From sequence record PP968062.1: DNA of 64,000 nucleotides, one strand, 5' to 3'. The notes below the pieces were generated by a model. That model searched no databases and was not told where the DNA came from. It saw nothing but the letters and a program-made list of their open reading frames with translations. A program made the position numbers and the translations under genes. The stretch comes from Pseudomonas phage HPP-Temi. This document shows, one piece after another, positions 2,417 through 59,043 of the stretch (position 1 is its first letter; every line of letters begins with the position of its first letter).

Positions 2417-3670
2417 TTAGCCCTTGACGCAAACAATCTGACGCAGGGTGTGGACGATCTCAATGAGGTCATCCTGAGCAGCCATTACGTCTTCAATGTT
2501 CTTATAAGCCTTTGGAGTCTCGTCGATCACGTCAATGTCTTTCCGGCATTCTACACCGGCAGTATCACGAGCATGATCTTCAAGAGTGAAAGTCTTAGCG
2601 GCTTGGGTTCGGGACATGACACGTCCTGCTCCGTGCGAACACGAACAGAAGGACTCGCGGTTCCCTTTACCTTTCACGATGAAGCTCTTAGCGCCCATCG
2701 ATCCAGGGATAATACCGTACATGCCTTCATCTGCACGCACAGCGCCTTTACGAGTTACGGATACTTTCGCACCGAAGTGGTTCTCGAACGACACGTAGTT
2801 GTGGTGACAGTTTACAGCAGTAAGGCTAGTGTTGATAGGCCGACCCATGTAGTCAGCCACAGCCTCGATTGTTGCACGCATCATGATCGTACGGTTGAGA
2901 GCAGCGTAACGCTGTGCCCAATGTACAGCCTCGATGTAGTCGCTGTAGTACTTGGTACCTTCCGGCAGATAAGCGAGGTCCTGATCAGGCAGATTGATGT
3001 GGTAAAGCCGCATCTCCTCTTTTGCTTTCTCGATAAAGTACCGACCAATTGCGTTACCGATTCCACGAGAACCCGAATGGAGCATGATCCAAACTCGATC
3101 TTGTTCATCCAGACAGATTTCTACGAAGTGGTTACCAGTACCGAGAGTACCTGCGTGGTTGAAAGCACGGTTAGCAGCCTTACCCAGTTTCGGGTGTTTA
3201 GCCACGATGAGCTTCAGTTCCTCTTCAAGCTTCTTAACCTGAGCTTGGAGCTCCGGTTCGAGTTTCTTGTAAACGAGGTTGAAGTCACTCCATGCGCCAC
3301 GATCATTCGGTCCGCCATTGTCAGTACGACCATGAGGGATCCGAGACTCAATACGGTAACGCAGATGTTGCAAGCCACGAGTCATGTCGTTAGCTGTCAG
3401 ATCAGTCAACTGTGCTGCCATTCCACAGCCAATGTCAACCCCTACCGCAGACGGAATGATTGCACCCCGCGTAGCGATTACGGAACCGATGGTTGCACCG
3501 GTACCAAGGTGGACATCAGGCATTACAGCCAGATGCTTATAAATGAACGGGAGTCCCGCAATGTTCTTCAGCTGACGTTTTGCATCAGCTTCAACAGGGA
3601 CGCCTTTAACCCAAGCTTTAATTGGGAATTCATTTTGTTCGTTCAGCATAACGTATTTTTGAGTAGTCAT
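2417..3670 (-). CDS. rtcB: RtcB-family RNA ligase (3'-phosphate/5'-OH)
   Basis: 417 aa. RtcB signatures HAGTLGTGNHFVEI, HSGSRGIGN, NCHHNY and SHGAGR are all present. Confidence 0.85.
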   Translation of the reverse strand: MTTQKYVMLNEQNEFPIKAWVKGVPVEADAKRQLKNIAGLPFIYKHLAVMPDVHLGTGATIGSVIATRGAIIPSAVGVDIGCGMAAQLTDLTANDMTRGLQHLRYRIESRIPHGRTDNGGPNDRGAWSDFNLVYKKLEPELQAQVKKLEEELKLIVAKHPKLGKAANRAFNHAGTLGTGNHFVEICLDEQDRVWIMLHSGSRGIGNAIGRYFIEKAKEEMRLYHINLPDQDLAYLPEGTKYYSDYIEAVHWAQRYAALNRTIMMRATIEAVADYMGRPINTSLTAVNCHHNYVSFENHFGAKVSVTRKGAVRADEGMYGIIPGSMGAKSFIVKGKGNRESFCSCSHGAGRVMSRTQAAKTFTLEDHARDTAGVECRKDIDVIDETPKAYKNIEDVMAAQDDLIEIVHTLRQIVCVKG

Positions 3671-3806
3671 TGTAGACGCTCCGAGAGTTTTAAGGTTTAG
3701 GAATTCAACGAGTTAACGTTGTGCCAAGGTCGGGATCGCAGAATTCCATGGACAGGTAGAGTAATGTCATGCCTGTCCGTATTAGATAAGACTTTTGAGT
3801 AAATTG

Positions 3807-4391
3807 TCATCGGTCCGATTCAACGGACATAGATAACTCTTTATGTTTTCTTCGCCTTTCGACATCGGCGAACCAAGGTCTTACACTGAGCCACATTGCA
3901 GGCCAACTAAGAATAGCAGCTATAGCCATCCATACTGCGCTGAGTAATACCCATGCATCGTTACCATCATCAACATCGCGTGGAGCTATGTCTAGTTGAT
4001 AACCGGTTCCAACGGGGACATGGTGATATGTGTAATCACCGAGCTTGGTTTCGTATACGAAGGGAACACCTTTCATTTTCCCTTCCCAACGACCCTTTAG
4101 CTCGGTATAAACACCGTTCTTGTACTTGTGAGATTCTTCCCATTTCCAGGTCAGTACAACCTGGGTCTTACGTTTGGTAACGTAGTCAGAGAAGAATGAG
4201 TTGTAGACTGCACCACCCATAAATGCTAAGCAGATTAGGTAGAGTACCACACAACGCAGTTTAACCCACTTGGAGATTGGTACATACGGCTCTTGTTTCA
4301 TGGTTATCGTACAGCCGGTTGCGTTTGCATAACCCAAGGGATTCCTTGTGGCCATTGCATATATTGCAGCTGCCTCCGGAGTTATATTCAT
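3807..4391 (-). CDS. hypothetical membrane protein
   Basis: 194 aa with two hydrophobic predicted TM segments (LICLAFMGGAVY..., AWVLLSAVWMAIAAIL...). Confidence 0.4.
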   Translation of the reverse strand: MNITPEAAAIYAMATRNPLGYANATGCTITMKQEPYVPISKWVKLRCVVLYLICLAFMGGAVYNSFFSDYVTKRKTQVVLTWKWEESHKYKNGVYTELKGRWEGKMKGVPFVYETKLGDYTYHHVPVGTGYQLDIAPRDVDDGNDAWVLLSAVWMAIAAILSWPAMWLSVRPWFADVERRRKHKELSMSVESDR

Positions 4392-5215
4392 TTAGGATTC
4401 CCATGGATAAGCTGGAACGTGTCGAACTTGTATTGATCAACGAAGTACCATGCGAGTTCACTCAGCTTAAAGATATCCGGACGTTCGTATTCACCGAAGT
4501 CGGGTTTCTCTTTAGCCAAATGGAAATCGATGAAACGGTCCAATACAGGACAACGATCGATCAAGTCTTGTTCAGTGGAACCTACCTTACAGTTGACCAG
4601 TTCCTGAATACGTTTGTACAGGGTAGGATCAGACAGAATCGGTAGGAGTTCATGGAATACCATCGGTGGATGTTCACGACTAGTCTCAACCCACAATGCT
4701 GCTAACAGTGGACGGAGAGCATAGAAGTATTTCTTCATGCGGACTTTCTCATCCGACAGCCAACGCATCTTGGTTTGCTTGGCCATGGAGATATAGTGCA
4801 TGAAGCTCGATTCGGGAATGAAGTGCTTGATAGCGTAATCACGAATCAGTTTGTAATCCCACTCGATCTTACGGTAAACGATCGGGGAGTTCAACCATTC
4901 CAACAGAGTCGGGTTAGACTTGTAAGCCAGTTGAAGTGTCTTGGTGATACTCCAACCAGCCAGATCGAGTTCCTTGGAAACCATCTCTTCGATGGTGTCA
5001 CGACCTTCGTTATCAACCCGGACATAATGGCTCGGATGGTTAACGTAGATGAAGCGAACATCGTAGTCGCTATTAGTAGAAGCGAAACCCCAACCACGAC
5101 TACCGGACTCACAGGCGTAAATGATCTTTACACCATACTTCTGTTCGATACGAGTTAACTCGGCGTCTATAACTGCACGCATCTCATCACTAACAGGGTG
5201 ACGTGGATCCATCAT
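4388..5215 (-). CDS. Pol-beta-superfamily nucleotidyltransferase (GS-x9-DxD)
   Basis: 275 aa. N-terminal motif YACESGSRGWGFASTNSDYDVRFIY fits hG[GS]x9-13Dh[DE]h of minimal nucleotidyltransferases. Start overlaps the upstream stop (ATGA-type coupling). Confidence 0.5.
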   Translation of the reverse strand: MMDPRHPVSDEMRAVIDAELTRIEQKYGVKIIYACESGSRGWGFASTNSDYDVRFIYVNHPSHYVRVDNEGRDTIEEMVSKELDLAGWSITKTLQLAYKSNPTLLEWLNSPIVYRKIEWDYKLIRDYAIKHFIPESSFMHYISMAKQTKMRWLSDEKVRMKKYFYALRPLLAALWVETSREHPPMVFHELLPILSDPTLYKRIQELVNCKVGSTEQDLIDRCPVLDRFIDFHLAKEKPDFGEYERPDIFKLSELAWYFVDQYKFDTFQLIHGNPK

Positions 5216-5619
5216 TTACCTACCTTTTCAAGTTTGAGTTTCTCTTCATTGCCCGTGTCCAAATACATGAACATCGAATTTCCCAGTAGGTTGTAATACA
5301 TCCAACCTTCCTTAACCACTTGATCGCCATACGTCAGAGGAATGTTCAATTCGTAAATGGCGTCATAAGGGATGACTACAGGATCTTTGTCAGGCTTGTT
5401 GAGGATGAGTGCATCGTCAGTAAGCTCAAGCCATTGCTTACGACTGATGACCCCAAGACCGATACTGAATTCGCTACCTGGGTCTTTCCCATTGAAAATA
5501 CCACAACGGACAGCAGGGTCAACGCGGTCACCAGCGATACAGATTTTCAACGGTTCGGGATTCACACCCATGAGTTCAACAACCAGTTCCAGTTGACGCT
5601 TGAGTTCAATCTTGTTCAC
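5212..5619 (-). CDS. hypothetical protein
   Basis: 135-aa ORF, translationally coupled to its neighbours. Confidence 0.4.
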   Translation of the reverse strand: MNKIELKRQLELVVELMGVNPEPLKICIAGDRVDPAVRCGIFNGKDPGSEFSIGLGVISRKQWLELTDDALILNKPDKDPVVIPYDAIYELNIPLTYGDQVVKEGWMYYNLLGNSMFMYLDTGNEEKLKLEKVGK

Positions 5620-43952: not shown

Positions 43953-46900
43953 TTAAGTTAACGAGAGTGGCGACGGACGATTACTCGCGGGCGCCGATCT
44001 CATCAACGTGGAGGTCATACTATTATTTCCCCCACTACCGGTTTTTGCAGTCTCTTGCGTACCACTGGACTTTTGTTCGTTCAATTGTACCAGACGCTTG
44101 AGATGATCACGCATCTCAAGCAACGTCTTCAGTTGTTCAGCTTGGATGTCATCTACCTGCTGAGCCTTCTCGTTATTACGACGTATTTCGGCTTGACGTG
44201 TAGAGTTCTGTTGCTGGGCAACTTGCATAGCTGCTTCTTGTTGAGCTTGGACTACTGTGTTACCCGAATCGGCAGATGGGTTAGCGCCACTTGTAGTAGC
44301 ACCACCAACTGGCGACATCGGTGTAATACCTGGCAATACCGGAGTCTGCGCAGCAGCGCCGGTAGCGCTGTACGCTTCCTCACGAGCAACAGCATCTTTA
44401 CCAGCCTGACCGTTGTCTTCACTATTCCAGAGTTCAGCAGCAGATGCCTTAGCGTTAGCTTTGGCTTGTTCCTCTGTTGCCTCCTCAGTAGTCATGTTCT
44501 TACCAGCTTCTTGCGTGGCTACAGAGCTACCTTCTGCACCACCACGATGCTTCGCAATCTTCTCTTCGAACATCTGGTAGATTTCCCCGAGGGTACGAGG
44601 TTGGCCACCTTTCTTGTAGAAGATAGGACGGTTAGCGGATGCAGCTTCAGGGAATACCGATGCACCAATAGTGTCTTGATTACGAGTCAAGAACTTACGA
44701 GCGCCGCCAGGACCCATGAAGTGAGCAATGTACAGGTCTACGTCTGTCGGATCACGACCCAGTGCATCTTTCAGGAAGGTGTAGTTATCCTTAATGAAGC
44801 ACGCACCCATCAGGGCGTTGATACGTGGATCAAGACGTAGGCTACGAGCACCGTCGTCTGGCGGAATACCGAACTTGGAGCCATGTTTCTTCAACATTGC
44901 GTCCCAGGTATCATTGATAAACTGGAACCAGCCGGTAGCAGACGATGTCTTAGCTTTGACGGTGTAGTCGAAGTTAGACTCAAGAGATGCGAAGATGAAC
45001 AGGAGTTCTACAGGGATACCAACCATAGCTGCAACAGCTTGGAAGGTTTCGGCAGCAGCCTGACGAGACTTATTAGCTTTCGGATACGGAATCTGTTCCC
45101 ATGCACCACCGTTACCCTTCGTCAGGGTTCCGTAGGTTTTACCTGTAGCAGATACTTCACCGGCCAGACCAAGTTTGTACTTAGCACTTGCAGCAGAATC
45201 AGACACGTAGTCTATCGCTTCAGATGCTTTCGCCTTGGTGCTACCCCATGCATTACTTACGGTCTCTTTAGCAGAATCCCAAGTATTCGAAATGGATGCC
45301 ATTGCCCTCTCGGCAAAGCTACCACCTGCTGCGGCACTTTGAGTACCAGCTGCTTGGTCACCCGCAGATTGAGTTGGCGTAGACATGATGTCTTTGCTTG
45401 CATCTTTCTTGAGTTGTTCCAAGTCGGCTTCAGCCATTTTCTTGAGATCGTCTTTACTTCCTTTAACGGGGAAGAGGGAATCAACCTGCCATACACTGGC
45501 ACCATCTGTGTTAGTGGTACCCAGTACAGCATTACCTACAACAACTGCATCACTAGGCTTGAGTTTAGATTCCATGTTCGCAATGGTAGTACCTTGAGTA
45601 GTCCCGCGCATAGCACCGTAATAGGCACGTGCAACAGGCATGAAGCGACCAACGAACCAGTTGTAGTACGTTGCACGATCTTCATCATTACCCACGATAT
45701 CTTTACCAAACAGCGGAGCCGTTTCTTGCAGGATCGATTCTAGGTCACCACGGAACTCAGGAACACCTCCCTGCATGGATAGACCATTGAACACCATCGA
45801 TTCAGCATTCAACAGCGGATACACGTTGAAGAAGCTAAGTACTTCTAAACCGTAAGCACGCATCCGAATGGATTGTAATGCAGTCAGCTTAGTAGTAGCA
45901 GCTGCGGTAGCAACAATAGGAGCACCAGTAGAACCACCTAACCCAGGGAATGCTTTCTTAGCAGCAGCCAGAGGCATACTAGCTTTGGAAGGATCCATTG
46001 GACTAGGAGCGGTCTTACCAGTTGCAGTGTCAGCAGCTTTCTTAGCAGCGTCTTTAGCTTTATCAGCTACAGTCGTACCAGCGGCACCGCTTACATCCTT
46101 ACCTTCTTTCTTCTCGCCCGCTTTATAACGAACAAACAATGCTTTCCAAAGTTGATCAGCTGCCGGAATGGTATCTTCCAATTCACCTTCTTCAGAGAAC
46201 GGATCAACACGGTACTGCATCGGCGTATCACCCGACGTAGATACCTTAACAGCTTTAACCAAAGCACCTTTCAGTTCCTGAGGGAACTTATCATCGATCT
46301 CAACGAGTTTAATTTCATTCTTCTTGAGCTTAGCTAGAGCCTTAACCCAGGTCAAGAAGATCGGACGGAAACGAAGTTCCATCCAACGAGACATCCGCAT
46401 TACTTGGACGTCATTCTTAACATCGATGCCGAGGATATCTAGGATCGCTTTACCACCGACACCATTGATATTGAAATCAGGTTGTTCAGTGCGTTCGGTT
46501 ACCCGATCGAAAGCATCTTCCAGAGCTTGTACTTTTTGCTGTTGGTCGTGATCAGTGATACCGTATTGCAACATGCGAAGACGTCGGAACTCTGCCTTGT
46601 TATCGTTCATTTGACCGAAGATCGGTTTCAGAATGTAACGAGATGTCAGTTGGCCCAATGGGTTAAGACTCAGAGTAGTCAGGAGACCCGTCTGTTTAGC
46701 GTCCATCCCATCTTTGCTATAACCGTAAGCCATAGCGCCTGTACCAACCGCAGCAGCTGTACCACCAAGTAGCCAAGGAGCAGCACGTTTGGCCAGACCC
46801 ATAAGTCGACCTTTAGCACCACCCTTCATACCGCCGCCCATCAGTACGTCAAACGCACCCGAGCCTTCTTCGCCTTCAGTACCAGTAATCTTACTGAAGA

Positions 46901-49900
46901 TGCCTTTCAGTCCATCTGACAAACCTTTCAGAACTTTGTTTTGAGCTTTCTCAGATCCATCTTCTTTACCCTTCAGCTTATCCATCAAGCCACCAACGCC
47001 TTCTTTGGCTTTAGCAGCTTTATCCTGCCAGCTACCAACACGGAGCTTCTCAGGAACTTGGGTTTGCAGAGTTTCAAGGATACGTCCGAGCAACATCTGA
47101 TCAGTAGTTTCAAAGTCTTCGTAAGGAACCCGTTCGAATAGACGACCGAGAACCGAACCACCGGCATTTGCAAAACCACCGAGTACTTTCTTAGCAGCGC
47201 CGCCGTAGAACTTACCAGTCTTCTTCATTGCCCAACCCATGTACTTCATGGAAGCATCGATGTACTTGGAGCGAGCAGCTCGGAAGCCACGCCAGATCGT
47301 CCGACGGAAAATCCCTTTGTTCTTAGCGAGGATGTGTTTAGTACCATCGTAGTTACGGAGTTCTTTGTACTGAGACGGATCTAGTACAGGTTCACCCTGT
47401 TCGTTGTAGATGGGACCGTAAACGTCACCGAAGTTTTCGATAACCCTACCTTTCTCATCGAAGTACTTACCAGCGTTAACTAGTCGACGTTCGAGTACAG
47501 GTACGTTATCTCCGGGAAGGTAGGCATTTTGTGTTTCGATAGCGAAGTTGAACAGAGCCGAACCCATACCGATGGCAGTCTTAGCACCAAACTTCAGTGC
47601 AGACCAAGCCAGAGTGGAAGTGTTCGTAGCCATGAACTTAGCGCCCCAGCCCATCGCGTTAGCCAGACGACGACCAGTCTTAGTCAAACGCCAGCGTTTA
47701 CGAGTAGCACGGGACCAGAGTCCACTAGCCAGTTCTTTAGCCGTAGCTAGAATAGAACCGTTCTTATCCAACAGATCACCCTTGATGTCTTGCATCGAAG
47801 TAATCTGTTCACCGTCGGAGTTATAGTACTCACCATTCTTCAGGCCTTTAGCCGTAATAATGGGTTCTTGTTCTCCATCTAAGTGCCAGTCAAACTTATC
47901 GTCTTCAGTAGCTTGTTGTTGCTGAGGTGTAGTACCCTCAGAGAACTGCTGAGCAGGACTGTTCTGTTGGCCCATCAGAGCACTACGGATTTTAGCCGCG
48001 GCATCCATCATAAAGGCAGGAAGCTCTAGACGCATTCCTTTACTATCGAACAGACCTTGAGCAGCTTCAGAAGCAGTCAGAACTGTTACGCCGGTTGCTG
48101 TCACTACTTTACCGGTAATGTCTTGGACAGATTCAATAACCTTCTTGGTATTAACGTCTACCAGGTTACCCTGAATAAAATCGATACCTTTAATGATCGG
48201 TTCAGTTGGATTGAACTTCGTGAACACGTCCATGATCTTGGCTTTCTGTCCAAGCGCGAACTGGGTAGGATCCTGTTGGAACTGATCCATATGTTCCCCA
48301 AACTTAGCCTTAGACTTAGAATAGAGATCCTGGCCCATGATACTCGCATCATTCCAAGCACCTTGCATACCAGCTACATACGGACCGAATTGACCATTCT
48401 GCATGTTGCTTGCAAAGTTCTGGAAGCCTTCACCGTATTTACCCTGCATGTATTGGAACTTGCCTTGGGCGATACGACTATAGCGAGAGAGTTCTTCTTT
48501 GACACGAGCTTCTTGAGGAGCATGCTTATTACGGAAGCGGCGCATTGCATTCAGAGCGTTAGCTTTGGCTGCGCCAGGATAAGCCGGACCATAGAAGTTC
48601 TTGTCGTTCACGTCACCTGATGCTTCCGGCTGGTATCCACCTTCCGCCCATGGGTTAGTATCAGTTACGCCAGAGCGCATGATTTCCCAAATGCGGTTAT
48701 AGTTGATACGGTCCTGTCCCTGTTCAGTGACAATGATACCAAGCATCCGAAGAGGCTCAGTTTGACCAGCGTTGATCAGGCGATGTACTTCTTTAACAGG
48801 ATCACGGCTTACCGAACGAATGTCCAGGAAGGCACGAGAGTATTCATCCCGTAGACGATGGTTGTCAGCATTGTCTGCCATCTTACCTTTATCGTCGAAC
48901 TGGAACTTACCTTTAAAGAAACGTTGTAGTTCATCAGTGATGTTAATGTCAAGACCGTCCATATAACCACCAGAGCGGATGTAAGCTTCTGGATCGAAAC
49001 GACGGTTAGTGGACGCATCCCTCAACATACGTTCAGCAAGGGCCTTACGAGCATCAGGGGAGAGTTTTCCTTCCTCATCCATCTGATCGATAGCATCGTT
49101 AATAGCGCCGCTAGCACTGCGGATAGAGGCAGCAGGAATGATCTTCTTCTGGAGACGATCATCTGCTTGCGATTGTACTTCGAAACGACCTGTAGTGATG
49201 TCAAAGACTTCACGCTCAATATCGTCACGACCAGTACGGATCATACGCAGTTCTTGTAACTGACGAGACAGGTAACCAGGGATGACTTCAACGATACTAC
49301 GTTGGGTCAATTGGTTAAAGGCCGCACCTTGATCAATTGTTTGATAGTTTCCGTTTTCCAGACGATCATTCAGATGGAACTGAGGAACGAATGGCATAAT
49401 AGCATCGCGCAATACACCGCGGATACCGTAAGTGTTCTGGTAGTTGTTAACGTATTCTTGCAGGAATGCCGGAACGTTGTCCAGTGCATAACCTACCTGA
49501 TGATGACGTCCACCGAAACGGTTGGAAAGCTTTTCCATGGTAGGACGTACTTGACGACCAGCCCACGGTACAACGGACGACTTGAGGAAATCTGCACCCA
49601 GCTCGCCAGCGAACTGACCAGCAATGCTGTAACGATTATCCCAAGCAGAACCACCTGCCATATCACCCATTCGAAGACCGGCCACGATCTCAGAGAGACG
49701 ACTACCGATGTTCTTCGATACACGATCGTTAACTTGGTTACCATAACCACCTAGGAAACCATGAAGGCCTTGAGCAGCACCTAGACCCAACCGGCCTAGC
49801 ATATTGCCACCACGACCTTTCGCACCGAAGTTAGTCAGTTCACCAATATTACCTTTCTTATAGTCAGGTAGACCAGTGTTACGGACCAATGCTTCAAATG

Positions 49901-50744
49901 CCTTATTCTGCAATTCAAGGTTAGCTTCTTGAACTTTAACCAGATCACGGATACCCATGTAGGTACGGAACTGGAGCTCAAGACCTTTACGTTGAATTCC
50001 ATAGTTGACTTGTTCGTTATATCCTACAAGACGAGTTAGACTGTCTACAGCCATGCCCATCGAGCGGGACATAAAGTCGAAGCGCCCAGCGCTAACTTTA
50101 TCACGAATACCACGTTCTGCACGTTCAACCGCAGCTCGCGATATTGCACCCTGTTCACTACGCTGGAAGTTTTCTTTACTTACCAGTGTGTTTTGATCCA
50201 GAGCGGCTTTAATTACGTTTGCATCATCCTGTTCTTGACGACTGCGACGAATAGCGATTTGATCCCGTTGGGAATCAACCTCGTATTGGTACTGCTCAAC
50301 TTTCCGATTAAGACTATCGGAAATATTATCGTACAAGGCGTTTGGAATGCGATCTTTTAACTGAGGTAGATAATCCTGTGCTTTACGACCAAGATAGTCA
50401 AGGTCGGATGCATTAACTCGTTCAACCGTATCTTTGATATCGGTTACAGAAGCCATTACATCGTCATAGGCGCCAAACAAACGTGCAAAGCCATCCGGCG
50501 CAGCACTGCGCAAGAAGTTTCTTACGATGTCTTTGGTTTTCAATCCACCGAGGAAGCCCTCTTTCAGACCCGATTTGAATTCGGTAATTGGATCGCCAGG
50601 TTTGGCTCCAGGACCGAGATCATCAAACAGGTCATCCAGCTCATTCAGGTCAAGTACGCCAATTCGCCCCTGGGCATTTGTCCCAGCAGGTTTAGGCAAC
50701 CTGGTCTTTCTTGTAGCCATGGTCAACTCCATCGATATAAACAA
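43953..50744 (-). CDS. giant virion-associated protein (2263 aa) with C-terminal lytic transglycosylase (SLT) domain
   Basis: The SLT motif [22 protein letters not shown]...[12 protein letters not shown] lies near residues 1880-2050. Long Ala/Gly/Lys-rich low-complexity segments. The true start may be MATRKTRL at 50717. Confidence 0.75.
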   Translation of the reverse strand: [2263 protein letters not shown]

Positions 50745-50787: not shown

Positions 50788-52440
50788 ATGAAGAAGGCTC
50801 TAGTCCCTTTCAACATTGACCTACTGATCCCCACAAAGGCTCAGCTTACAATGTTGGGGCAAGTAACTAGCCATGAGATCTTCGAAGGTACCGGTGGTAA
50901 CTTTCACGAGAAAGGTCTGTTCTCCGTAGAAATCTTCGGACGAATTGGATCCTCTGAACGTGAAGGTCGCTTCGGTTATATCAACATGGGTCTTGAAATT
51001 ATTCACCCGGTCATCTATCGTAACCTCATTAAGTTGAAGGCATTCTACGAAGATATCATCCTGGGTAAAGCTTTTGCTGTATTTGATCCGTCGATTAAAG
51101 ATTTCGTTCGTTCTAACGAGCTCGAAGGTAGAACTGGCTATGCCTTCTTCTTTGATAATTGGAAGAAGATCGACTTCGGTGAAACTAAGTCCTCTATTCG
51201 TCGTGTACGGGTTGAGCTGATGAAGAAGTACATGAGTAACTGTACCTTCAAGAACCTGCTCGTTATTCCCGCTGCATATCGTGAGGCCGAGATCGATGTT
51301 GATGGTCGTGTATCCATGGACGAGGTTAACGAACACTATCGTTACATGTTGAACCAGTCTTACGGTGTACCTGAATACTTCGGTCCCAATGATGACCTGA
51401 GCATTTATGACCGTAAACGGACTTCAATGCAGTTGACTGCTCTGGCGATCTATAACCACTACGAAAACCTGTTGTCTGGTAAAGGTGGATATATTCAACA
51501 GAAGTGGGCATCTCGACGTGTATTCAACGGTACTCGTAACGTTATCAGTTCGTTGGATACTAACGCAGCTGATCTCGACCAACCCAACCGTCCCAAGTTT
51601 AAAGATGCTGTAGTCGGTATTTATCAAGCAGCCGTATCGGTTAAGCCTAAAACTATTTATCATCTCCGGAATGGTGTTGTAGGTCAGGTATTCGACAGTC
51701 TGTCTAACCGTGTAGAACTGATAAACAAAAAGACCCTGAAACTTGAATGGGTTAACATCAGTAACGAAGAGATGGACCTTTGGGGTACACCAGAAGGTCT
51801 GGAACGTGTTATCGGTGAACTGAAGGTAATTGAGAAGCGGTCTCGTGCTATTGAGATCGGTGGTTATTACCTGGCTCTCGTGTACCTCGATGACAAACAG
51901 AACTTCAAGGTCTTCCGTGACATCACTGAAATGCCTAAGAATTTGGATCACAAATTCGTTCGTCCTATCTCTTATGCAGAGTTGATTTACCTGAGCGGAT
52001 TACCTATGTGGAAAAGAAACTCCGCATTCGTAACTCGTTATCCCGTTGAGAACTATAACAGTTCTATCCCTGTCAAGATGTACGTTAAGACCACCGTTAA
52101 AGGTGAGATGCGTTATCCACTGGGTTGGGATTGGGAACGTGATACCAATGCCGAAATCGCTCTTGAGTATCCGATCATCACTATCAACGAGCCTGCACAA
52201 TGGCACGACTCGACATCTATCTCTCCGTCCATTCTTGCTCCTCTTGACGCAGACTTCGACGGTGACACTGTGTCGTTCAACGCCGTGTATTCCAAAGAGG
52301 CAATTGAAGAATCTGATAAGTTCTTCAAATCTCGTCTAGCCTATATAAAGGCTGGTGGTGGTCTCGCATTCAGTGTCAACATCCACACGCTTAACCTAAC
52401 TCTCCGGTACATGACTGGGGAACCGAAAAGTAGGGATTAA
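50788..52440 (+). CDS. multisubunit RNA polymerase beta-prime-like subunit, N-terminal fragment
   Basis: 550 aa. NEPAQWH (like NRAPTLH), LDADFDGDTVSFNAV (like NADFDGDQMAVH) and ASRRVFNGTRNVISS (like GKRVDYSGRSVI) are present. Confidence 0.6.
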   Translation: MKKALVPFNIDLLIPTKAQLTMLGQVTSHEIFEGTGGNFHEKGLFSVEIFGRIGSSEREGRFGYINMGLEIIHPVIYRNLIKLKAFYEDIILGKAFAVFDPSIKDFVRSNELEGRTGYAFFFDNWKKIDFGETKSSIRRVRVELMKKYMSNCTFKNLLVIPAAYREAEIDVDGRVSMDEVNEHYRYMLNQSYGVPEYFGPNDDLSIYDRKRTSMQLTALAIYNHYENLLSGKGGYIQQKWASRRVFNGTRNVISSLDTNAADLDQPNRPKFKDAVVGIYQAAVSVKPKTIYHLRNGVVGQVFDSLSNRVELINKKTLKLEWVNISNEEMDLWGTPEGLERVIGELKVIEKRSRAIEIGGYYLALVYLDDKQNFKVFRDITEMPKNLDHKFVRPISYAELIYLSGLPMWKRNSAFVTRYPVENYNSSIPVKMYVKTTVKGEMRYPLGWDWERDTNAEIALEYPIITINEPAQWHDSTSISPSILAPLDADFDGDTVSFNAVYSKEAIEESDKFFKSRLAYIKAGGGLAFSVNIHTLNLTLRYMTGEPKSRD

Positions 52441-52442
52441 CC

Positions 52443-55400
52443 ATGCGTTTGAAAATTCATCAGTTTCTGAAGAACTACAGCCTTCGAAACTCCGGCGAAC
52501 TATTGCGTCCGCGTTTGTTCCCGTTAGCGAAGCTGGAACTGCCTCTTGAGGTAGTATATCAGTTCCTTGATGACAACGCTGCTGTAAAGGGTCCGAGTCA
52601 ATCGGACCCCCTCTTTGCCAAGCTGCAAGGAAAGGTGTTCATTGAGCACGTTACACAGCTGGAGACTCTTGATGGTAACGCTCGGCGTACTTCGCTTATT
52701 CCGACTACCCTTGAAGCAGACTTCCGTCGTCAGCACCGTTTCTTCAAACCACTGCGTAAAGATGCGGCTGTAAAGCTTAACACACAGAACGTTGCTGTAG
52801 TCAACTACAGCATGCTGAACCCGCTTTGGAAATACCAAGCCAACTTCAAGTCGAACTGGTATCGCTGGAGCAACAATACTGCTACCTTCTGGAAAGGTGT
52901 AGCAGATATGCATAAACGTTTCGGCTGGAACCAATTCATCGAACTCCATATCCCGGAATCCATTCCGACGTTTAACGAGTTCAAGATGTTGGAGCGTGGT
53001 ACCACTCAGGCATTGCTTGAGAAGTTCCGTACCAATGCAGCACTGAACGTTTTTGATCTGTATCGTTTCCTCGGTGAAAACCGTGCTTCTTCTTATCTGT
53101 CTACTTTGCCGAAAGAAGCATACGAGAAGATTAACTTCCTGATTCGTGTACAGAACAACTTCTTCGTTATTAACCTGGGTCAACTGGAACAATGGCGCGA
53201 TGCTCCGGAAGTTATTGCCGAGCAAGAAACTGTAGCCACTGAAAGCTTCGTTGATGAACTGGGTCTTGAAGTCTTCTATAAACCTGACGTATTACAACGT
53301 CGCATGATCAGCCTGTTGACTACTCTCGTTGAGTACAACAATGGTAACGATACTCTCATGGAGGTCGAACCAGAGGCACCTAAGATCACCGATATGGTTG
53401 AACCCGAAGACAAGTCCACTGACGAAGAAGAAGAAGCTGAAGAAGTTACTGAGCGTGCAGAAGAAGCTGAGGAAGGTGTCGATACAGATGCTATCGATGA
53501 TACATCCGAATCTGGTTCTAATGTTAGCTCCCTGCTTGACCTGGGTATGCTCGAAGTTGTATTTGAGCCGCCACCCGAGTCCGAGCTTGAGAAGACTACT
53601 CTTGTCATCGAGAAAGATCCGCTTGAGACAGCAGAAATTGCTAAAGCACCTACTCTCAAAGTAGAAACTGCTCCGGTAACTAAATCGATTATCCCAGCTT
53701 TCAGTAGCGGTGATGCGTTGGTTGATCCGGTTGGTCAGAAAGCTTATGACCTGTACCAAGTCGGTATGATCTCTGCCCGTGCATTTGAACAGGCTGTAGA
53801 TGACTCGGCTATGTATAAGTCTATTCCGGATCCGTTTGGTTCGGGTAAGACTATTGCAGAAGCAATGACATATGAAAAATCTGACTTCGTAATTCCATCT
53901 GAACAATTCGCTGACAAAACCACCATCACTGACAAGTCGATGCTGGGTGCAGTTCACAAAGCGATGATGCGCAAGTACACGAAGACTCTTCTACCGAAAG
54001 ACATCATGCAATCTATCCTGTCCATTCAGGCTCAGGGTGTAGCTGTTACTGATGTGCGTATGGAAGAAGTCCGTGATGCGATGAACCACTACCAATCGTT
54101 CACTGTTACTGTGAAACCGATTCGTGGTCGTCCTTCTCAACTGCGTTTCCGTATTCCGGTTATTGACCGGGATGGTCGTTTCCGTTCCAATGGTGTTACT
54201 TATCGTCAACGTCTGCAACGCGCGGATATTCCGATTCGTAAAGTCAACCCACTTAAGGTTGCACTCACCAGCTATTACAACAAGACTTTCGTAAATCGTT
54301 CTGAGCGTGCTGAGAACAACTACGATACTTGGCTGATCCGTCAGATCGGTGTACGTGCTCGTGATAACAATGACGTGTCGGTAACTGATGTACGTTATGC
54401 TGAACTGGACCAAGCTCAATTCGTTCTGCCTCGGGTATACTCTGCTCTGGGTCGTGCTTACCGTTCGTTCAAGAATGGTGCGAATGAGTTCTACTTCAAG
54501 TTCGACGATCATGCCGAGTACTTCCACAAGACCTACGGGATTTCCGTAGAAGCGCTTGAGAAGGATGGAATGGTTGTTGTGGGTTCCCATAACCGTCTAC
54601 CGATTTTGGTTGACCAAGGTTCTCAGTTCTACGTTAAAGAAGGTAACGATCTCGAACCGATGGGGACGATGATTGATATCCTGGGTCTGAACCAAGTGAA
54701 AGCTCCTCTGGAAGCAATCCTTGTTTCTGTGGCCAACAAAGAACTACCCCTCGGTTTCATCTTGGGTTATCGTCAAGGTCTGTCTGGTCTACTGGATACG
54801 CTTGGCGTTCAATATCAAAGTCATCCTCGTGGTACTCGTATTAGCGTTAGCCCCGATGACTACACTCTGGCATTCTCTGACGAGATCCTGGTGTTCAGTC
54901 GTCAAGACTACCGTGCTACTCTGGTACTCGCTGGCTTGAAGCGTTATCATCAATCTCTGAAGAAGTTCTCTCGTTGGGATTTCGATCGACGTGACGTCTA
55001 CTTCCGTCTACTAGAGGAAGCTGGTCTCTCTGCACGTTATACTCGTGAGATCGATGGCCTGTTTACTTCCTTCGTTGACCCGATCACTAAAGGTCTGCTT
55101 GAAGAGATGGGAGAGCCGACTGATTTCCAAGGTCTGCTATACCGCTCTGTAGAGCTGCTGACTAATGACTGGTCTCCTGCCGAGGTAGACGGTGCATACA
55201 TGCGCTATCGCGGCTATGAACGTATGGCTGGGGCTATCTATGGCAGTCTGAACCGTGCTGTTCGTATATACAACAACCGTGAAGGTTCTGCCGATCAACA
55301 GATCGTCATGGATCAACACGAAGTATGGCGTAAGATTGCATCTGACCCGACCGTTGCTACTATTGAAGACTCGAACCCTATCGCTAACTTGCGCGAGCAA

Positions 55401-55664
55401 GAAGCCATGACCTACCGTGGTGATGGTGGCCGTGGGCCGGACTCGATGGTTGCCCGTACACGTATCTATCACGAGTCTGATGTGGGCGTTGTATCTGAAT
55501 CTACTGTTGACTCTGGTGACGTGGGTGTAATTGCCTATCTGTCTCCTGATGCCAACTTCAACAGCATGCGTGGTACTACCCGTATGTTCGAGAAAGGCAA
55601 AGACGGTACGGCTAAGATGTTGTCTACTGGTGCACTCACTGGTGTAGCTACAACCAACGATGAT
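52443..55664 (+). CDS. RNA polymerase beta-like subunit, exon 1 (ends at the intron)
   Basis: Translationally coupled to the upstream gene (TAAccATG). The C-terminal TYRGDGGRGPDSMVARTRIYHESDVGVVSESTVDSGDVGVIAYLS aligns to beta region D ([39 protein letters not shown]). Has an acidic insertion. The 3' boundary is approximate. Confidence 0.5.
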
Positions 55665-56003
55665 TGAGGTTATTGAATCGGAAAGTCTTTTCAGATTTGA
55701 GAAACCTTTGGTCCCAATGAATAGCGATATTCATTTGGAATCTCCCTTAATTGCTGGAACCTCCTTAGAGCTAATCTAACCACTGCGAGTCGAAAGACAA
55801 AGCCAAGGTTTGAAAATAGATTAGATTGGACAATCAGCAGCCAAGCTCCGTATAGGAGAAGGTTCAACGACTAACCGCTTATCACGGTGTACCTGCCAAG
55901 TGGTGGGGAAATAGGGAGCCTCTCAAGTAGAGGAAGATATAGTCTCCTCTTTAGGGAAACCTAAAGCAGTCGAAAGACGGAATTGATCTAACGAATCAAT
56001 TTG
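55665..56003 (+). ncRNA. group I self-splicing intron (about 340 nt, no internal ORF)
   Basis: Core elements: P aattgctggaa (~55757), Q aatcagcagcc (~55840), R ggttcaacgactaa (~55867), S aagatatagtctcc (~55934). P with Q and R with S are mutually complementary. Boundaries are approximate (+/-20 nt) and were chosen so that the length is a multiple of 3, the 5' site follows a U and the 3' site follows a G. Confidence 0.75.
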
Positions 56004-57152
56004 AAGACAAGGCCGAAACGTATCAACTTCGTTTCTATTCAGCAACAGCAAGGTATCTATGCAGACGGTTACGAGGTTACTCCTCTCCGTACTGGCTACG
56101 AGCAGATCATCGCTCAACGCACTAGCTCTATCTTCGCATCCGCTGCTGAACAAGATGGTGAAGTTATTGCTGTAGATGCTCACGGTATTACCGTCAAGTA
56201 TGCCGATGGGGAAATCTTCAGTTCTCAACTGGGTACCGTTCATGGTACCGCTGCGGGTGTAAACTATCCGCACACTCTGACCACTGGCCTTAAGAAAGGT
56301 GATAAGTTCAAACGTGGTGATACTCTGGCTTTCAATAGCAAGTATTTCACTGAGGACCGCTATACTCCTGGACAGGTTCTGTGGAAAGCAGGTGTGATGG
56401 TTCGTGTTGCATTCTGCGATAACCTTGACACGCTTGAAGACGGATCGGTAATCAGCCGTGACGTAGCGATCAAGCTGAATACTCAGACTACTGACATTAA
56501 GAACATCACTGTTCGCTTTGATCAGGCAATCGAGAATTTGGTCAAGGTTGGGGATCACGTAGACTTGGATTCAATTCTATGTACTATTCAAGACCCCGAA
56601 ATGGCCAAGAACTCTCTGTTTGGTGCCGCGAGTATTGAAACCCTGAAGAAACTTTCCGCTAACGCTCCGCGAGCGAAAGTTGTAGGGACTATCTCTAAGA
56701 TCGAATGTTACTATCATGGTGACATCGAAGATATGTCTGACAATCTTCAGAAGGTAGCTCGTGCTTCTGATAAAGAGAGAGCCGATAGGGCCAAGTCGTT
56801 GAACGAACCGGAATTCACTGGTGAAGTCGACGCATCCTTCCGTGTTAAAGGTCAGATGCTTGAACCTGACAACATGGTTATCCGAATCTACATCGACCAT
56901 GATATCCCTTGTGGTACTGGTGACAAAGGTGTAGTTGCGAACCAGATGAAAACTGTGTTCTCTCGGGTAATGGATGGTCGGAACGAGTGTGAAGATGGTA
57001 CTCCGATTGGTCTGATCTTCGGTAACACATCGGTCGAAGAACGGATGGTCATGTCCCCTAAATTGATTGCGACTACCACAATCTTGCAGCAAGCACTTTC
57101 TCAGCATATAGCTGCGCTCTATCGAGGAACCACAAATGCAAAATCAAAGTAA
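56004..57152 (+). CDS. RNA polymerase beta-like subunit, exon 2
   Basis: Same reading frame as exon 1. Contains AFNSKYFTEDRY (like AFMPWNGYNFEDSI) and GTGDKGVVANQ...ECEDGTPIGLIFGN...RMVM (like [33 protein letters not shown]). Confidence 0.5.
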   Translation, partial: KTRPKRINFVSIQQQQGIYADGYEVTPLRTGYEQIIAQRTSSIFASAAEQDGEVIAVDAHGITVKYADGEIFSSQLGTVHGTAAGVNYPHTLTTGLKKGDKFKRGDTLAFNSKYFTEDRYTPGQVLWKAGVMVRVAFCDNLDTLEDGSVISRDVAIKLNTQTTDIKNITVRFDQAIENLVKVGDHVDLDSILCTIQDPEMAKNSLFGAASIETLKKLSANAPRAKVVGTISKIECYYHGDIEDMSDNLQKVARASDKERADRAKSLNEPEFTGEVDASFRVKGQMLEPDNMVIRIYIDHDIPCGTGDKGVVANQMKTVFSRVMDGRNECEDGTPIGLIFGNTSVEERMVMSPKLIATTTILQQALSQHIAALYRGTTNAKSK

Positions 57153-57330
57153 CAACGTAGTACTCAGTCAGAACATCGCCGTTCTGACTGCTGCTGCCGA
57201 ACTTGGAGCCGAAGCTTTGCTTCGCTCCATCGGCGGCGACACCTCGGCAGCTACTCTAGAAGGTGAGTATCTGACCAAAGAAGATATCCAGGCGGCTATC
57301 GTTGCCCGTATGTGCAAATACCTCGGTTAA
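57136..57330 (+). CDS. hypothetical small protein
   Basis: 64-aa ORF overlapping the exon 2 end by 17 nt. Confidence 0.25.
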   Translation: MQNQSNNVVLSQNIAVLTAAAELGAEALLRSIGGDTSAATLEGEYLTKEDIQAAIVARMCKYLG

Positions 57331-57342
57331 TTAGGAGTCAAC

Positions 57343-59043
57343 ATGTTTAATCCCGAAACTCTGGACGCTGTCCGTGATGCGGCCCAAGCGTTCACTGAAC
57401 AAGAACGTGTTCTGACTATTCCGAACCCCGAGTTCCCTCTGGCTGTCTATGCTGACGGTTTCAACTGTGAATCCGAAGGCAACAAAGTTGCAATGTCCGA
57501 TGAACTGGCTGCTTCCGTAGAGTCTCACTTCATCGAAAGCAACGTAGAAGCTCCCGAGAACGTGAACGAAGAGCGCGAAGCAATCATCAGCAATATGCAC
57601 ACCGCTATTGCTAAGATTCAGTTCAACACTCAGAACGTTATCATCCCGGCTATCAAAGCCATGGCTACCGATTACGCTAGCCGTCAAAACGTAAGTGGTC
57701 AAGCAGACTGCGACGTTAGCACTTTCAACTACGATCCGATCCACAACGATCCTCGTCTGGTGAACCACATTCAGACCCGCTATGCCAAAGTACGTCCTCT
57801 TCCGGAATATCGTACTTTCATGCTGCGTCCTATTGATGCCGCTGCTATCATCGAGATGGTATCGATCAATAACCCGCACCTGGATCAAGAGCAGGTTACT
57901 GAATGGGCTCTGAAGATCCCGGCTCAACGTGTAGAGAACGTATGGAGTGAACTGTTCGGTACCGCTCGTGGTCTGACTGTTTCTAACCTGAGCTTCATTA
58001 ACCCGAACGCCTTCCCGTTCAATCTGGATGAACTGACCCTTGGTTACTTCATCTGTGGTCACTACATCGACAATCCTCAGGAAGTTCCTGGTGAGTCTGT
58101 GACTTCTGATGAATGGGAGCAAACTGTACGTCTGCTTCACGAAATGCTCGGTTTCTACATCATCCGTGCCTATGAGAATCGTCTGGAGATGCGTGAGTCC
58201 AATACTCTCGTTCTGCGTTACGAAGCTCATCGTCCGGTTGAGAACCGTCGTGTACTCGTTACTCTGAACGGTGACGTAGCTGAAAGCTGGCTGGTTAAAG
58301 GTGGTAGCGTAGAAGCTCTGCTGGGTGCTGCTATTGATGGCGGTAACGTTGTTCATGCTCAAGGCATTGATGCCCGTGCTGAACATTACATCCGTCGTTG
58401 GACTGCTACCTACCCGCTGATCAAACAGGCTGCTCTGGACTACGCTGAAAGCCGTCGTCGTCAAGACGTAATCGATACCTTCCTGACCCATTGCGGTGAT
58501 GGTCCTCTTCGTGAGATGAACATCGGTAACGTACGCGAGATTCTGGCTGCTGCAATGCGTTTCGTTCGTAGTGAAGACCTCGATAATCCGTACTGTGTAT
58601 TCAGTAACCTGATCTGCCGTACCTATTACACTGAGCCGATGTACAAAATGTACCTCGACACTATCGATGAGTATGGTCAGAACTTCCCTGCCGCTGAACT
58701 GCGTGAGCTGAACACCCAGGCTCTGATCTCTCTGATCGCTATCTTCCAGGCTCAGCAGATCAAAGTAGAAATGTTCAATCCTGATGTTGATCCTAACGCT
58801 ACTCTTCCTCAACCGGAAGCTGTTCCGGAAGAACTCTCTGAACCGACTGGTGAAGAAGTATCCGAAGCAGTAGGTGATGCTATTGAAGGTGAAGGCCCTC
58901 TGGCTGAAACTCCGGAAGTAGAAGACGAAGAAGATCCTTACGCTGACACGCCTGCTGAAACCGAGACTGAAGTAGTCGAAGTAGAAGAGGAAAAAACCAG
59001 TGAAGAAGAAACTGAATCGGAAACTGAAGAAGAACAAGCTTAA
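57343..59043 (+). CDS. hypothetical protein with highly acidic C-terminal tail
   Basis: 566 aa. AGGAG SD. The C-terminus has an EEVSEAVGDAIEGEG...ETEEEQA acidic repeat region. Confidence 0.45.
   Translation: MFNPETLDAVRDAAQAFTEQERVLTIPNPEFPLAVYADGFNCESEGNKVAMSDELAASVESHFIESNVEAPENVNEEREAIISNMHTAIAKIQFNTQNVIIPAIKAMATDYASRQNVSGQADCDVSTFNYDPIHNDPRLVNHIQTRYAKVRPLPEYRTFMLRPIDAAAIIEMVSINNPHLDQEQVTEWALKIPAQRVENVWSELFGTARGLTVSNLSFINPNAFPFNLDELTLGYFICGHYIDNPQEVPGESVTSDEWEQTVRLLHEMLGFYIIRAYENRLEMRESNTLVLRYEAHRPVENRRVLVTLNGDVAESWLVKGGSVEALLGAAIDGGNVVHAQGIDARAEHYIRRWTATYPLIKQAALDYAESRRRQDVIDTFLTHCGDGPLREMNIGNVREILAAAMRFVRSEDLDNPYCVFSNLICRTYYTEPMYKMYLDTIDEYGQNFPAAELRELNTQALISLIAIFQAQQIKVEMFNPDVDPNATLPQPEAVPEELSEPTGEEVSEAVGDAIEGEGPLAETPEVEDEEDPYADTPAETETEVVEVEEEKTSEEETESETEEEQA

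Follow-up and report, generated by a model that had tools for sequence, protein, structure and literature searches.

The beta subunit of the virion-packaged RNA polymerase (RNAP) of phage phiKZ is gp178, and in the related phage PhiPA3 an intron carrying gp210 sits directly after two conserved aspartates (Birkholz et al., Science 2024, PMC11620839). The interrupted gene of PhiPA3 is that of the virion RNAP beta subunit, gp211/gp209. In phage 201phi2-1, which belongs to a different genus and infects P. chlororaphis, a short intron occupies the same site in gp273/274, and the record (NC_010821) annotates gp273/274 as a joined protein, detected by mass spectrometry (MS) and 'interrupted by a mobile...' element. 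The present analysis concerns the corresponding gene in 64,000 nucleotides (nt) of Pseudomonas phage HPP-Temi (record PP968062.1); this whole stretch is called the window, and coordinates are positions within it. The source is a nucleus-forming Pseudomonas jumbo phage that has PA1C and PS119XW among its relatives. The virion RNAP beta gene is, with high confidence, split by a 348-nt group I intron that lacks an open reading frame (ORF) and whose splicing would restore a single subunit of 1453 amino acids (aa). Same-site introns with and without an endonuclease have already been documented and the window intron is a further example, the third occupied allele at the site and the second without an endonuclease.

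Two ORFs were present on the plus strand in the same genomic frame, ORF 1 at 52443-55667 (1074 aa) and ORF 2 at 56001-57152 (383 aa, with a nominal TTG start). A preliminary description of this DNA had interpreted them as exons of one gene separated by a gap of about 340 nt. The shared frame and the single gene were borne out, but the length required revision, as 333 nt lie between the ORF 1 stop and the TTG of ORF 2 and the intron itself is 348 nt long. When compared with PHROG 3148 (phrog_3148, RNA polymerase beta subunit), ORF 1 covered profile positions 2-1050 (E 0) and ORF 2 positions 1051-1423 of 1424. Because a single profile was covered contiguously from end to end, the two ORFs are one gene, a conclusion that was also reached from the uninterrupted gene of PA1C and from an alignment with Thermus beta that runs through the junction. 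The PhiPA3 and PA1C records identified the gene as a homologue of phiKZ gp178 and PhiPA3 gp211. For ORF 2 there is neither an ATG nor a recognisable Shine-Dalgarno sequence, and its TTG at 56001 lies inside helix P9.2 of the intron.

The nearest public genomes were the PA1C-like P. aeruginosa jumbo phages PA1C, PS119XW, BRkr, phiHQ, HHBS36_1 and phiLBG22, with approximately 84% nucleotide identity. In all six, the query aligned in two pieces spanning 4362 nt rather than 4710 nt. One uninterrupted coding sequence (CDS) of 4362 nt is annotated in PA1C, and Rfam detected no intron in the PA1C gene. Since the continuous gene of these relatives is exactly 348 nt shorter, the intron extends from 55665 to 56012. 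The last base of exon 1 is U55664 and the intron begins with an in-frame TGA, while at the other end the terminal intron base is G56012 (omega-G) and exon 2 starts at C56013; a terminal G was found in all five introns compared. The alternative 5' sites after U55661 and U55665, and the alternative 3' sites G56011 and G56006, were rejected because the frame was broken, the terminal G was lost or residues were added or deleted relative to PA1C. More generally, moving either boundary resulted in the loss of the frame, of the terminal G or of the preceding U, or in the gain or loss of a residue. The joined exons comprise 4362 nt and encode 1453 aa, equal to the PA1C CDS, and are colinear with it, with no indel at the junction. 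As the first intron codon is an in-frame TGA, unspliced RNA gives only a truncated product.

Among the searches run, the product was recognised as a beta subunit only by the PHROG search and by a profile built from 13 sequences, the spliced protein and its intronless relatives. The latter profile matched Thermus beta with E 5.7e-15 in three colinear blocks, the second of which crosses the junction (Table 1). Of the beta regions named in the preliminary description, D in exon 1 and H in exon 2 were recovered by this comparison, whereas region F was not specifically recovered. A search with the single sequence aligned NDD/PKRINF..QQQ (the slash marks the junction) with Thermus beta HDDANRALMGSNMQTQ, so that the junction falls within HDDANR, a beta motif of universal conservation. 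Across the junction the joined protein reads ...GVATTNDD/PKRINFVSIQQQQ..., and the junction-spanning tryptic peptide predicted from it is MLSTGALTGVATTNDDPK. With Pfam-A, even at E<=10, no RNA polymerase domain was detected in exon 1, in exon 2 or in the C-terminal half of the spliced protein, and a phmmer search of the PDB with the C-terminus of exon 1 as a single sequence returned nothing relevant.

The Infernal/Rfam scan suggested in the preliminary description was positive. The group I model RF00028 (Intron_gpI) matched 55681-55966 on the plus strand with a score of 70.5 bits (the gathering score is 50) and E 7.3e-16, over model positions 1-253 of 253, and was the sole match above threshold when all Rfam families were scanned against the window. 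The four core elements P, Q, R and S were all located in the order that had been reported, and the P4 (GCUG/CAGC) and P7 (GACUA/UAGUC) pairings given in the preliminary description are those of the Rfam model alignment. In P4, UGCUGG at 55752-57 pairs with UCAGCA at 55834-39. The two strands of the P7 pseudoknot (Table 1) were 100% paired and unchanged across the six introns of the alignment described below.

Six introns, with their limits as given by Rfam, were aligned: those of the window, PhiPA3, 201phi2-1, phiKZ (downstream of gp56), the E. coli phage nepoznato and the Litunavirus PAP02. RNAalifold, unguided, recovered P2.1, P3, P4, P5, P5a-c, P6/P6a, P7.1, P7.2, P8 and P9 from these six introns, with compensatory changes in 44 of 72 pairs. 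When an explicit structure that included P7 was evaluated, standard pairs were found in 94.5% of the cells, as compared to 35-44% in controls in which the 3' partners were slid by 1-3 columns, and 44 pairs had changed on both sides, as compared to 3-19 in the slid versions. On no measure did any of 500 shuffles reach the observed value. RF00028 leaves the final 46 nt of the intron unmodelled. An alignment of five 3' tails showed that P9.1 and P9.2 were 100% paired, that 8 of their 10 pairs were compensatory and that the P9.2 loop, (C/A)UAACGA, was conserved. The unconstrained minimum free energy (MFE) fold of 55650-56025 (-103.5 kcal/mol, z = -2.6) reproduced nearly all of the helices in Table 1.

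In the splicing pathway that these results suggest, the whole gene would be transcribed as a single pre-mRNA in which the intron would fold into a P3-P8 core, with the P7 pseudoknot, surrounded by P2, P2.1, P5a-c, P7.1, P7.2, P9, P9.1 and P9.2. An external guanosine would attack after U55664, held by the proposed P1 as a U.G wobble, and the terminal G56012 would next fill the guanosine site, so that exon 1 would be joined to C56013. The ligated RNA, ...AACGATGAT/CCGAAACGT..., would be 348 nt shorter and would restore ...TTNDD-PKRINF... within the HDDANR motif.

Table 1. Features of the interrupted virion RNAP beta gene, its intron and the colinear blocks shared with Thermus beta (helices are predicted).
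Feature	Position	Strand	Basis and remarks
Exon 1, virion RNAP beta-subunit gene	52443..55664	+	1074 codons; ends ...ACC AAC GAT GAT (TTNDD); PHROG 3148, PA1C colinearity
Proposed P1, exon CGAUGAU with guide GUUAUUG, loop UGAG	55658..55675 (55658-64 with 55669-75)	+	MFE fold of 55650-56025
Group I intron, 348 nt, no ORF	55665..56012	+	RF00028 match 55681-55966; ends from PA1C alignment; 3' tail by covariation
P2 hairpin, UUUUCA / UGAGAA, loop GAUU	55688..55703	+	folds
P2.1 hairpin, CCAAUGAAUA / UAUUCAUUUGG, loop GCGA	55714..55738	+	RNAalifold; 8/10 pairs compensatory
P3 5' strand, CUCCCU	55742..55747	+	partner 55913-55918; 5/6 pairs compensatory, 100% paired
P element / P4 5' strand, AATTGCTGG (AAUUGCUGG)	55749-55757	+	Rfam alignment; invariant in six introns
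P5	55762-64/55828-30 (within 55762..55830)	+	RNAalifold, pair counts
P5a	55771-78/55817-24	+	6/7 pairs compensatory
P5b	55779-81/55807-09	+	RNAalifold, pair counts
P5c hairpin, GUC-GAAA-GAC	55789-98	+	RNAalifold, pair counts
Q element / P4 3' strand, AATCAGCAGCC (AAUCAGCAGCC)	55832-55842	+	Rfam alignment
P6	55840-42/55861-63	+	pair counts
P6a, loop GUAUA	55846-49/55855-58	+	4/4 pairs compensatory
R element, GTTCAACGACTAA (GUUCAACGACUAA)	55862-55874	+	P7 5' strand GACUA 55869-73; invariant in six introns
P7.1	55874-77/55885-88	+	3/4 pairs compensatory
P7.2, loop AAGU	55892-97/55902-07	+	4/5 pairs compensatory
P3 3' strand, AGGGAG	55913-18	+	RNAalifold/pair-count helix
P8 hairpin, CCUCU / AGAGG	55919-23/55929-33	+	RNAalifold/pair-count helix
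S element, AAGATATAGTC (AAGAUAUAGUC)	55934-55944	+	P7 3' strand UAGUC 55940-44
P9, GAAA loop	55949-55/55960-66	+	MFE fold
P9.1, GAAA loop	55969-71/55976-78	+	MFE fold, covariation
P9.2	55981-87/55995-56001	+	MFE fold, covariation
Exon 2	56013..57152	+	379 codons and stop; starts CCG AAA CGT (PKRINF...); PHROG 3148, Thermus beta HDDANR and GDK...DGTP blocks
Block 1, motif NPL..GPGGL..ETPEG ('region D')	exon 1		Thermus beta 396-464
Block 2, motif HDDANR	across junction		Thermus beta 534-655
Block 3, motif GDK..DGTP ('region H')	exon 2		Thermus beta 821-882

Outside the core, P7.1 and P7.2 lie between P7 and the 3' strand of P3, and 7 of their 9 pairs were compensatory. A periphery composed of P7.1/P7.2 and P9.1/P9.2 is that of phage introns of subgroup IA2, for example T4 td. 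The td intron likewise interrupts a protein-coding phage gene and has an in-frame stop directly behind the 5' splice site; its P1, to which the proposed P1 of the window intron would correspond, is short, with a U.G pair closing the loop, and it encodes the endonuclease I-TevI in a peripheral loop. The window intron is assigned to subgroup IA (IA2-like) on its architecture. Unlike td with its I-TevI, the window intron has no endonuclease. GAAA tetraloops cap three of the hairpins, P5c, P9 and P9.1. The 11-mer AGTCGAAAGAC occurs twice in the intron (55788-55798 and 55968-55978), each copy forming a 3-base pair (bp) GAAA-capped hairpin, P5c and P9.1, respectively. PhiPA3 and 201phi2-1 have, at the position equivalent to P2, a hairpin that begins AAGUCU.

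The preliminary description had left both the splice sites and the P1 pairing open. The boundaries are now placed at 55665-56012 as described above, and for P1 there is a candidate, thermodynamically weak, in which the end of exon 1 pairs with a guide just inside the intron (Table 1). This proposed helix has 7 bp, including three G.U pairs, and positions a U55664.G55669 wobble at the 5' splice site. An equivalent P1 with a 1-nt bulge is possible in PhiPA3 (GUUUAUUG) and in 201phi2-1 (GUAUUG). Three other registers were rejected: CGAU with AUCG 55677-80 lacks the U.G of the splice site, the pairing of GAUU with GAAUC 55675-79 puts the splice-site U opposite A and is not conserved in PhiPA3, and GAU with GUC 55685-87 has just 3-4 bp. 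In the family members that reside in other genes (phiKZ gp55, nepoznato and PAP02), the 5' splice sites and guides could not be located by eye. The motif UAUUGAAU (55672-55679 in the window, about 3976 in L002 of PhiPA3 and about 4326 in L004 of 201phi2-1) overlaps the proposed guide in all three same-site introns. It is also found upstream of the endonuclease gene of the nepoznato intron (L005, about 1100), and exon 1 of phiKZ gp55 ends in AUUGAAU (L003, about 2955). It is on account of this recurrence of UAUUGAAU/AUUGAAU outside the same-site guides that the P1 is called tentative.

The window, PhiPA3 and 201phi2-1 introns all follow identical GAT GAT codons, the insertion contexts being ...AACGATGAT/TGAGG, ...AACGATGAT/TGTTA and ...CACGATGAT/TGTGT, respectively. 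The PhiPA3 gp210 intron therefore has the same insertion point in the same gene as the window intron. The two ribozymes are 75% identical over 85% of the intron and have in common the proposed P1 guide region, P7.1 and the P9.2 loop CUAACGA. However, the PhiPA3 intron is 1352 nt long (3966-5317 of locus L002) and carries gp210, a 330-aa HNH/NUMOD protein, between P2 and P2.1, whereas the window intron has 348 nt and no ORF. Moreover, the P5abc and P6 domain of the window intron is just 52-67% identical to that of PhiPA3. In PhiPA3 (L002 3990-5024), a strong P2 hairpin, in which the GGAGG ribosome-binding site of gp210 is sequestered, immediately precedes the gp210 ORF, and the stop codon of this ORF lies within the 3' strand of P2.1, so that ORF and ribozyme overlap. 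The 201phi2-1 intron resembles the window intron in being short (336 nt) and in having no endonuclease, and P7.1-P7.2 are 85% identical in the two, but the whole P5a-c extension that is present in the window intron is missing from it, and the exons of the two phages are just 65% identical.

No endonuclease ORF was found in the intron, as the preliminary description had stated. The longest ORFs lying within or mostly within it have 39 aa on the plus strand and 58 aa on the minus strand. Neither gave a Pfam match, even at E<=1, while the positive control, PhiPA3 gp210, matched HNH_3 and NUMOD1, and a tblastn search with gp210 against the whole window returned nothing meaningful. The intron cannot home alone because it encodes no homing endonuclease, and in its present state it could move only with an endonuclease provided in trans. 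The intron is present in the window, PhiPA3 and 201phi2-1 and absent from seven PA1C-like records. Of the 17 relatives of exon 2 in IMG/VR, the copies of PhiPA3 and 201phi2-1 alone have an intron, and the other 15 read through DD-x-KR. A sequence considered as a fourth occupied allele (L107) was rejected, as it proved to be the IMG copy of 201phi2-1. This sporadic distribution is as would be expected of a mobile element. No co-conversion tract was detected, since the adjoining exon sequence, compared in segments of 60 nt, shows 80-88% identity to PA1C and 68-77% identity to PhiPA3, as elsewhere in the gene. The window intron would be either a derivative of the endonuclease-bearing PhiPA3 same-site intron or a precursor to it.

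An intron without an endonuclease may be more than a passive selfish element and may have been kept because it splits the target of a gp210-like HNH enzyme, making the phage immune to an 'intron weapon' of the PhiPA3 type. This is a tentative proposal that we consider possible but on balance improbable. The intron occupies the exact site targeted by PhiPA3 gp210, and the proposal is favored by the findings that escape mutations in phiKZ lie 2-3 nt upstream of the site and that gp210 nicks intron-minus alleles (PMC11620839). The PA1C-like sister phages have an empty, conserved site, and the phages concerned all infect P. aeruginosa. On the other hand, protection of an intron-plus allele is hypothetical. 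Some HNH intron endonucleases, I-HmuI and I-HmuII, also cut intron-containing DNA, so that occupancy of the site would be no guarantee of protection. In addition, foreign nucleases may already be kept out by the phage nucleus (Birkholz et al., PMC11620839). Nucleus-forming phages that infect the same cell have recently been shown to contend over this site, and the closest relatives, with their empty site, provide a natural intron-plus/intron-minus pair for asking whether occupancy alone protects.

The ribozyme also belongs to a wider family. The introns of phiKZ gp55/gp56/gp56.1, of the Litunavirus phages (PAP02, VL1 and YH6) and of nepoznato score 75-93 bits with RF00028 and are 80-88% identical to the window intron in P3-P6, but they reside in other genes, those of the non-virion RNAP (nvRNAP) beta' subunit at N/ADFDGD, an N4-like RNAP and the tape measure protein, and mostly adjoin an endonuclease gene. 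In phiKZ (AF399011, L003 ~2960-4320), the intron beside gp56 splits the nvRNAP beta' gene at the catalytic motif, gp55 ending ...GQLN and the downstream exon, gp56.1, starting ADFDGDQLN; spliced reads of this intron were not reported (Putzeys et al. 2024, PMC10914365). As judged from their positions, introns of this family appear to have settled repeatedly in RNAP active-site motifs. The ribozyme family is common, since at least 120 viral contigs contain an exact copy of the near-consensus R...S pair. An exact search of IMG/VR with 29 nt of the intron 5' end gave no matches, and an exact look-up of three proteins of the window in a collection of 15 billion proteins gave none either.

The similarity of the window intron to these relatives changes from domain to domain. 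In P5abc and P6 the identity is 87-96% with the phiKZ gp56 intron and 76-96% with PAP02 and nepoznato, whereas 201phi2-1 and the window are 46% identical in P6. P7.1-P7.2 show the reverse, with 77% identity to PhiPA3 and the value given above for 201phi2-1, as against 49-56% for the other introns, and P2.1 and P3'-P8 are nearest PhiPA3 (72% and 81%, respectively). No database intron was closely similar over the full length of the window intron. The pattern suggests a mosaic produced by domain exchange among introns of Pseudomonas phages. An extended version of the protection proposal, in which the intron, sitting in the gp210-type homing site of the essential virion RNAP gene, would be a protective 'scar' free of the cost of a nuclease and its ribozyme a mosaic from recombination among the introns of co-infecting Pseudomonas phages, is unlikely.

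Several observations weigh against the conclusion that the two exons are joined by a functional intron. Both splicing at 55665-56012 and the origin of the intron are what we infer from sequence. The introns predicted in phiKZ gave no spliced reads under the conditions used (Putzeys et al. 2024, PMC10914365) and, consequently, a predicted intron in this phage group need not splice detectably. P4 and P7 are invariant in the six-intron set and are for that reason uninformative, covariation neither supporting nor contradicting them. The proposed P1 alone has a stability of -3.2 kcal/mol (z ~0), no better than shuffled sequences, and it is beyond covariation testing because the three same-site introns share one exon sequence. 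A P10 pairing was sought between CCG, with which exon 2 opens, and the loop of P1, but it had at most 1 bp and none was convincing. P1 at 55658-64/55669-75 is accordingly a weak proposal and not an established helix.

These points bear most directly on the possibility that the element is a splicing-dead relic and that each of the two ORFs is expressed as a polypeptide of its own, the two then assembling in the polymerase as the pieces of split beta and beta' subunits naturally do in jumbo phages. The subunits of jumbo-phage RNAPs are often split, the C-terminal chain of the nvRNAP beta subunit of the Bacillus phage AR9 starts to align about 20 residues upstream of the junction (7s00_C residue 11 at profile position 327), and the phiKZ introns that lack spliced reads (PMC10914365) would be consistent with a relic. 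The natural split point of the AR9 subunit is close to the intron site at the DD motif. Nevertheless, we regard separate polypeptides as very improbable. The break would fall inside the invariant DD/xKR motif, ORF 2 would have to be translated with neither an ATG nor a ribosome-binding site from a TTG buried in P9.2, no element of the catalytic core is damaged and the score of the core is far higher than the Rfam threshold, the nearest relatives have one continuous gene, and the 201phi2-1 homologue with a like intron is annotated as one joined protein that was detected by MS. The notion that the element is not an intron at all but an intergenic spacer with a chance similarity to the group I consensus, or another RNA element, can appeal to the fact that splicing has so far only been deduced, but it is effectively refuted by E 7e-16 over the full model, the extensive covariation with homologues and the precise 348-nt presence/absence relative to PA1C.

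With a split gene as the preferred interpretation, both ORFs should be merged in the annotation into a single virion RNAP beta subunit of 1453 aa, join(52443..55664,56013..57152). The finding leaves the general knowledge of group I introns unchanged; it adds a compact 348-nt ribozyme from a phage that transcribes away from ribosomes. Just upstream of the RNAP genes, an ORF of 2263 aa on the minus strand (43953-50744) had no Pfam match. The neighbours of the beta gene are homologues of gp180 (50788-52440), gp177.1 (57136-57330) and gp177 (57343-59043). The second of these, an ORF of 64 aa, overlaps the final 17 nt of exon 2, and its PA1C counterpart is annotated as similar to PHIKZ177.1.

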